Shown here: in pieces, positions 16,092-19,427 of the stretch
Position numbering within the stretch: the first letter of the stretch is position 1
Layout: the number at the start of each line of letters is the position of its first letter
Assembly (NCBI GenBank): GCA_045599485.1
Contig: JAZRWA010000071.1
Span: 1 to 23,994, forward strand
Source of the DNA: Clostridia bacterium
Lineage (GTDB): Bacteria; Bacillota; Clostridia; Christensenellales; Aristaeellaceae
DNA: 23,994 nucleotides
Direction of reading: 5' to 3'
Translations under genes and position numbers: made by a program
Notes under the pieces: generated by a model
Database searches by the model: none
What the model was told of the DNA's origin: nothing
Seen by the model: only the letters and a program-made list of their open reading frames with translations

Positions 16092-19427
<3,336 letters not shown>

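Follow-up and report, generated by a model that had tools for sequence, protein, structure and literature searches.

Can a functional cytidine deaminase be encoded by a gene whose codon for the catalytic glutamate is TAG, and if so, which amino acid does this TAG specify? The question is raised by a fused ybeY-cdd gene on the minus strand of the window, the term used here for the whole stretch of 23,994 nucleotides that was analysed. In minus-strand translation, the frame runs from MNNTFTFEF... to ...FLGKE-TAA and is interrupted by a single internal stop at codon 221, where the plus strand reads CTA.

The TAG at 16335-16337 and the Cdd domain

The features of the gene that bear on this question are as follows.

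16092-16997, minus strand: ybeY-cdd fusion gene of 301 codons with the stop codon TAA (Pfam and phmmer)
16335-16337, minus strand: TAG, codon 221 of ybeY-cdd, at the catalytic (proton-shuttle) Glu position of C-A-E (PDB alignments and relatives)
16338-16346, minus strand: Asn-Cys-Ala codons directly 5' of the TAG, the Cys being the first zinc ligand (PDB alignment)
16236-16250, minus strand: intact P-C-G-V-C, the P-C-x-x-C zinc-ligand motif, downstream of the TAG (PDB alignment)

In Pfam, a single ORF contained YbeY (residues 16-161) and the cytidine/dCMP deaminase zinc-binding domain (PF00383, residues 169-263; E = 1.1e-16, with 61 bits where the cut-off is 25), the cytidine deaminase portion extending over approximately residues 169-290. 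Fusions of the same type (PF02130 plus PF00383, 296-318 aa) were common to the listed database relatives of the clade. The Cdd part, of the homotetrameric zinc-dependent type, matched solved cytidine deaminases in phmmer with a best E value of 4.6e-32 (8x6u; also 2d30 and 1jtk), and each of the four PDB alignments shown placed the TAG at the E of NCAER. Thus, the Cys and Ala of C-A-E are present and the Glu codon is TAG. The segment PWPCGVCRQ (residues 248-256) aligned to PCGACRQ of the solved enzymes and supplies the other two zinc ligands. A preliminary description of this DNA had stated that the TAG replaces the catalytic Glu of Cdd, and the alignment proved exact, with the zinc ligands intact. 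The corresponding column was E in 74 of 74 non-recoded related loci, and the position was also E in 114 database homologues matched by motif. The enzymology of the cytidine deaminase family indicates that Gln in place of the catalytic Glu would abolish deamination. The proposal that this position would constrain the TAG to a reading as Glu is supported by these comparisons.

Besides the truncated 220-aa product of the window gene, which came from a single NCBI contig, the databases contained a second cluster, consisting of six truncated YbeY-Cdd calls of 220 aa, 85% identical, from ENA and Logan assemblies. The window genes were found in the same order in three loci of this sister species, L081 (1.2 kb), L082 (14.5 kb) and L169 (10 kb), of which L082 and L169 both came from Logan run SRR27361835; a further locus, L170, carries tilS-hpt-ftsH and matches L082. 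Amino acid identities between the window and the sister species ranged from 80 to 98%. The Cdd codon was again TAG in L081 and L082, with the frame continuing beyond it. Over the 80 codons downstream of the TAG, the window and L082 differed by 28 synonymous and 4 non-synonymous changes (dS 0.78, dN/dS 0.028), while the 220 codons upstream were less constrained (dN/dS 0.12). So low a ratio at this dS argues that the downstream region is translated, and the substitution pattern indicates that the Cdd domain is made and under purifying selection.

Taken as a whole, the evidence presented here makes it very probable that the organism, an uncultured gut or rumen member of the Clostridia near Christensenellaceae/Aristaeellaceae, reads UAG as Glu, and that 16335-16337 encodes the catalytic Glu of an active Cdd domain. 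UAG would then be a sense codon for Glu, and the cdd TAG would supply the catalytic residue of a predicted active deaminase.

In-frame TAGs in the window and the residue at their positions

The window has a GC content of about 50% and carries ordinary housekeeping genes of Clostridia in the order atpA (partial), atpH, atpF, atpE, atpB, atpI, upp, two small genes, spoIID, tgt, a pseudouridine synthase gene, a SAM methyltransferase gene, ileS, a membrane protein gene, era, ybeY-cdd, pgpH, phoH, gltX and glnS. Its 21 genes contained 14 in-frame TAGs, distributed over 10 genes, and neither an in-frame TAA nor an in-frame TGA. Broken ORFs fused into full-length genes once only TAA and TGA were counted as stops. 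The gene ends were TAA (11 of 20) and TGA (9 of 20), with TAG at none of the 20, and TAG made up about 2.6% of the putative Glu codons. Fourteen random nonsense mutations would all be TAG with a probability of roughly (1/3)^14, so the pattern reflects more than chance. A methylation or base-calling artefact was ruled out, since the sequences on either side of the 14 TAGs have no DNA motif in common. Besides the cdd codon, the TAGs of the window are the following.

1512-1514, minus strand: atpH (delta subunit), codon 40 (from the reading frame)
2563-2565, minus strand: atpB, C-terminal tail; CAG in the sister species
3680-3682, minus strand: atpI, linker; TAG in the sister species too
4532-4534, minus strand: upp, codon 21; D/D/D/E/E in solved Upp; GAG in the sister species (98% aa identity)
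6696-6698, plus strand: spoIID, site 1; E in 3/3 solved SpoIID; CAG in the sister species
6795-6797, plus strand: spoIID, site 2; A/E/E in solved SpoIID; GAG in the sister species
7233-7235, plus strand: spoIID, site 3; TAG in the sister species too
9789-9791, minus strand: SAM-dependent methyltransferase gene; E in 2/2 relatives; TAG in the sister species too
14558-14560, minus strand: gene of a membrane protein without a Pfam match, position 216; column G 5 / E 5; ACA in the sister species
17236-17238, minus strand: pgpH, position 732 in the variable acidic tail (PEK-TAG-DDEQ); A 13, E 10, T 9; AAG in the sister species
17434-17436, minus strand: pgpH, position 666 (TIE-TAG-FIV); E commonest, 34/74 (R 16, D 9, Q 7); TAG in the sister species too
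18703-18705, minus strand: pgpH, position 243 (AAR-TAG-AVR); column Q 30 / E 30; TAG kept in the sister species
20265-20267, minus strand: phoH, codon 22; E 55, D 5, R 1 of 61 relatives; GAG in the sister species

The preliminary description had quoted several of these contexts, and all were present as NSG-TAG-SEES in atpI, PEK-TAG-DDEQ in pgpH, FP-TAG-EAYEA in atpB, MR-TAG-TTTG in upp and RGQ-TAG-LRI in phoH. Its expectation of D, N or E at the upp site agreed with the solved structures. For SpoIID, where D or E had been expected, site 1 conformed in all three solved proteins; site 2 conformed in two, and the third has Ala. The phoH site had been called variable, which turned out to be wrong in view of the 55 of 61 relatives carrying E.

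Six TAG sites were common to the window and the sister species (cdd, two in pgpH, the methyltransferase gene, SpoIID site 3 and atpI). The 13 unshared TAGs in the comparison of the window with the sister genome paired with GAG (6), GAA (1), CAG (2), AAG (1), AAA (1), TAC (1) and ACA (1). The prevalence of TAG-GAG exchanges is expected if TAG specifies Glu, since the change is then synonymous; a reading as Gln would predict CAG as the commonest partner. Most non-Glu partners were located in tails or loops of low conservation; the exception was SpoIID site 1, with CAG in the sister species at a position that is E in 3/3 solved homologues. Many in-frame TAGs, together with no in-frame TAA or TGA, were likewise found in L082, L169 and L170, as well as in L054/L167 of a second lineage described below. 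The highest density of TAGs was seen in tilS of the sister species (L082 1358-2710, minus strand; L170 2-796, plus strand), which has four to five of them. In alignments of the TilS TAG sites to PDB entries, the sole visible column was variable (L/H) and uninformative. The spoIID gene of the sister species (L169 4623-6350, minus strand) ends in ...EK-TAG-TAA, at which the window has ...EKVK-TAA; this terminal TAG could encode an extra C-terminal Glu or could be a relic TAG stop backed by TAA.

Column statistics were obtained for the 12 TAG sites at which 8 or more homologues could be aligned, in a comparison of three recoded genomes with 78 non-recoded relatives. The columns not given above were as follows.

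pgpH 84 (L082): E 53/67
pgpH 752 (L082): E 9/38, commonest
pgpH 807 (L082): E 6/8
membrane protein 261 (L082): E 13/13
phoH 135 (L054): E 59/61, D 2
pgpH 107 (L054): E 30/68

Glu was the commonest residue at 9 of the 12 columns and tied at 2. As a background, Glu was commonest in 8.2% of 2,097 columns of these genes, and at least 9 of 12 would have P = 3e-8. Summed over the 12 columns, Glu had a log-likelihood of -7.9, with Ala at -46.1, Gln at -47.1, Asp at -52.9 and Lys at -53.1. Glu was thus ahead of the next residue by about 38 natural-log units, and Gln was no better than Ala. Column statistics had been suggested as a genome-wide check; over these 12 sites they favoured Glu (-7.9 against -46 or lower) and not Gln. 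Counted against Glu were the even split at pgpH 243, the two CAG partners, and a few K, Y and T in variable regions. Overall, the interpretation of TAG as Glu was supported by the selection downstream of the cdd TAG, the column statistics, the solved homologues and the pairing with the sister species.

The wider clade and a second recoded lineage

A scan for Era with one genome per GTDB species yielded 80 loci (L001-L080) from uncultured gut and rumen Clostridia with Era identities of 64-78%. The order phoH-pgpH-ybeYcdd-era was kept in most of them. TAG ended 9 of 361 homologous genes in these loci (TGA 188, TAA 164), which is about 2.5% of stops. Owing to this clade-wide rarity of TAG as a stop, the lack of TAG-terminated genes in the window is weak evidence. 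TAG is the stop of a conserved gene located upstream of phoH in four members of the sister clade of the window, and of era or pgpH in several other lineages.

In-frame TAGs in homologous genes were found in only one of the 80 loci, L054 (JAUNDF010000011.1, MAG GCA_030526225.1), which has four, its genes lying at 274-2382, 5799-6863, 6848-9109 and 10951-12123. A TAG of L054 stands at the E of the MutL motif HPxKxEVRF, a position occupied by E throughout the alignments shown to solved MutL proteins and in 120 of 120 database homologues. More of the same contig, L167, contained further split genes such as scpA. A protein search with the L054 MutL for truncated fragments from other samples gave only full-length proteins with at most 67% identity among the matches listed.

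A neighbour-joining tree from four proteins (Era, PhoH, YbeY-Cdd and PgpH), built on sparse sampling, showed that the window and L082 were sister to L002-L010, and that L054 was located in a different large clade. This separation suggests two independent origins. On balance, we lean towards the view that the UAG-to-Glu change had two or more independent origins in a single group of uncultured gut and rumen Clostridia, one in the lineage of the window and its sister species and one in that of GCA_030526225.1 (L054/L167).

Crude ORF screens for in-frame TAGs over the 80 loci were swamped by antisense ORFs and were replaced by homology-anchored counts. Antisense CTA and CTG Leu codons read as TAG and CAG, and naive ORF screens are therefore confounded. 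Very long ORFs lie antisense to ileS, pgpH and gltX in the window (11699-13738, 17101-18216 and 21190-22875, all plus strand); they appear to be by-products of codon composition.

Decoding machinery, competing readings and known codes

If UAG specifies Glu, it would be decoded by a tRNA with the anticodon CUA and GluRS identity elements, most simply a duplicate of tRNA-Glu(CUC) with a C36-to-A change. RF1, the reader of UAA and UAG, would have been lost or disabled, and termination at the 20 gene ends, all of them TAA or TGA, would be left to RF2. Codon capture would be the probable route, given that few genes anywhere in the clade end with TAG. Two genes of the window are related to the charging step.

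20815-22275, minus strand: gltX (GluRS), the enzyme expected to charge tRNA(CUA) with Glu; Arg364 kept, aligning to T. thermophilus Arg358
22285-23985, minus strand: glnS (GlnRS), adjoining gltX, intact

The presence of glnS implies that Gln-tRNA is made directly. Compared with non-recoded relatives, GluRS and GlnRS of the window showed only conservative lineage-specific substitutions, and no radical one was found in either enzyme. T. thermophilus Arg358 reads C36 in discriminating GluRS. The unchanged Arg364 was counted against the reading as Glu; the charging of an A36 tRNA with Glu may depend on a second GluRS or on a tolerance of A36.

In about 100 kb of DNA from the recoded lineages, and in loci L001-L082 and L167-L170, ARAGORN detected no tRNA whose anticodon is CUA, a result counted against the reading as Glu; the window, L081, L082 and L169 had no tRNA gene of any kind. 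Metagenome contigs were also scanned with CCNCCCTCTAAMGGNGGTA, which represents the anticodon arm of a tRNA-Glu with CUA as its anticodon; of the 84 matches, 80 were examined and none was a tRNA, a weak negative given that the pattern was guessed. Clusters of two or three CAU tRNAs, labelled Met by ARAGORN, lie in L167 (16991-17267, minus strand) and L170 (6442-6598, plus strand); the tRNAs seen in these two loci were all Met. Rfam searches of the window, L082 and L054 returned nothing besides a T-box leader, which is located upstream of ileS in L082 (12930-13119, plus strand; 93.1 bits, just at the gathering score); the equivalent spacer of the window (about 13811-13996, minus strand) was below threshold.

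Among the competing readings, an ambiguous code, in which RF1 still stops at TAG and partial suppression inserts Glu to give truncated as well as full-length products, is improbable. Such leakiness would fit the share of TAG among putative Glu codons, which is only about 2.6%, as well as the TAG-TAA end of spoIID in L169, and the lack of TAG terminators is uninformative in a clade with about 2.5% TAG stops. Against it stand TAGs early in core genes (codon 21 of upp, codon 40 of atpH, and phoH) and six TAGs kept across a divergence with dS of 0.6-0.8, with which a costly partial termination is hard to reconcile.

Quite improbable as well is a reading of TAG as Gln by classical amber suppression, as in amber-recoded phages, with Cdd and other proteins tolerating Gln or being inactive. 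In its favour, GlnRS readily charges tRNAs with a CUA anticodon, and the window carries a glnS gene; Q equals E at pgpH 243, the sister species has CAG at SpoIID site 1 and in the atpB tail, and the upp site is Q in one related locus. Nevertheless, the summed log-likelihood places Gln far below Glu and the TAG columns are not dominated by Gln, which is missing altogether from those of cdd (74 E), phoH 22, phoH 135, membrane protein 261 (13 E) and MutL (120 E). The unshared TAGs pair with GAR in seven cases and with CAG in two. Furthermore, Gln would inactivate the deaminase, yet the Cdd domain is under strong purifying selection.

A reading as another residue, whether pyrrolysine, a different non-canonical amino acid, Asp or Lys, is highly improbable. 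It could draw on the genome-wide use of UAG for pyrrolysine described in archaea, on the two Lys codons among the partners in the sister species, and on the D found at the upp site in three solved homologues. Against these points, the log-likelihoods of Asp and Lys lie well below that of Glu, a Lys-like residue cannot replace the catalytic Glu, the TAG columns are acidic and not Lys-like, and no pyl gene was seen in the loci read (about 100 kb in total). Finally, the possibility that the TAGs are undecoded, being pseudogenising mutations or sequencing and assembly errors such as G-to-T artefacts, is effectively refuted: GAG does become TAG by one G-to-T change and the source is a MAG contig, but all 14 in-frame stops are TAG with no common sequence context, the same TAGs recur in a species separated by a dS of about 0.7, in assemblies obtained independently (ENA and Logan), and selection is strong downstream of the cdd TAG.

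The reading of UAG as Glu can be compared with the codes already described. Peritrich ciliates use UAR for Glu (NCBI tables 30 and 31), and in eukaryotic codes of this kind decoding is carried out by a cognate tRNA-Glu with a mutated anticodon. Full-text searches returned UAR-to-Glu reassignment only for eukaryotes, such as Blastocrithidia nonstop (PMC12153298), with which the window lineage would share a genome-wide use of UAG for Glu and in-frame UAGs at conserved Glu positions. Those codes, however, operate with a single eRF1, and UAA is reassigned together with UAG; the window comes from a bacterium with the RF1/RF2 system, in which UAG alone is affected and UAA is the commonest stop (11/20).

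For bacteria, the full-text searches returned only UGA-to-Trp, UGA-to-Gly and arginine-codon changes, and all bacterial code changes known at the time of Shulgina and Eddy reassign UGA. The signature of bacterial UGA reassignment is a mutated tRNA anticodon together with loss of the cognate release factor RF2 (PMC13462651). As in the UGA-to-Trp (table 4) and UGA-to-Gly (table 25) codes, a stop codon would have been captured as sense, and loss of RF1 is the analogous expectation; the codon, the release factor and the amino acids are different. Moreover, most bacterial lineages with recoded UGA have reduced, low-GC genomes, in contrast to the approximately 50% GC of the window. In archaea, UAG is reassigned genome-wide to pyrrolysine (Kivenson et al.; 10.1101/2024.09.30.615893). 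The two cases are alike in being prokaryotic, in the genome-wide use of UAG as sense and in being poorly detectable from coding density. They differ in that the archaeal code employs a 22nd amino acid with a dedicated PylRS/tRNA-Pyl, whereas a canonical amino acid is inferred here and the TAGs stand at conserved Glu columns.

The amber-recoded crAss-like and huge phages read TAG as sense, usually as Gln. They share the codon and the gut ecosystem with the window lineage, and their mechanism is a suppressor tRNA(CUA). Unlike the situation proposed here, they use Gln and their recoding is tied to the infection cycle; in the window, chromosomal housekeeping genes of a bacterium are affected (the atp operon, ileS, era and phoH). 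Engineered E. coli with RF1 deleted is viable without UAG termination, and its UAG can be assigned through tRNA(CUA) (PMC4333366; PMC11903333). That system is synthetic, whereas the window lineage would have evolved naturally, with TAG spread into native genes.

No report of a bacterial UAG-to-Glu code was found in the literature searched, the coverage of which was incomplete, and UAG as a genome-wide sense codon in cellular prokaryotes was reported there only for pyrrolysine in archaea. Relative to the stop-codon reassignments known from this literature, the present case would be new in its codon, amino acid and host group. If true, it would be the first reassignment of amber to a canonical amino acid in cellular prokaryotes, and the bacterial code tables would gain a new entry from a free-living gut bacterium of about 50% GC in which UAG means Glu. 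Such an organism would also be a natural counterpart to the RF1-deleted recoded E. coli, and would make the codon-capture model testable in a setting where relatives keep TAG as a rare stop. Should the two origins hold, the clade may have been predisposed to amber capture by its very low usage of UAG as a stop. A natural tRNA(CUA)/GluRS pair that resists mischarging by GlnRS would in addition be of interest for genetic-code engineering.

Standard gene callers truncate the proteins of these lineages, and databases list the fragments as complete. The window gene is represented by a YbeY-Cdd entry of 220 aa, and the L054 contig by a 359-aa 'HemW' fragment (MDO4483398.1) with entries derived from the NCBI record and from a Logan assembly.
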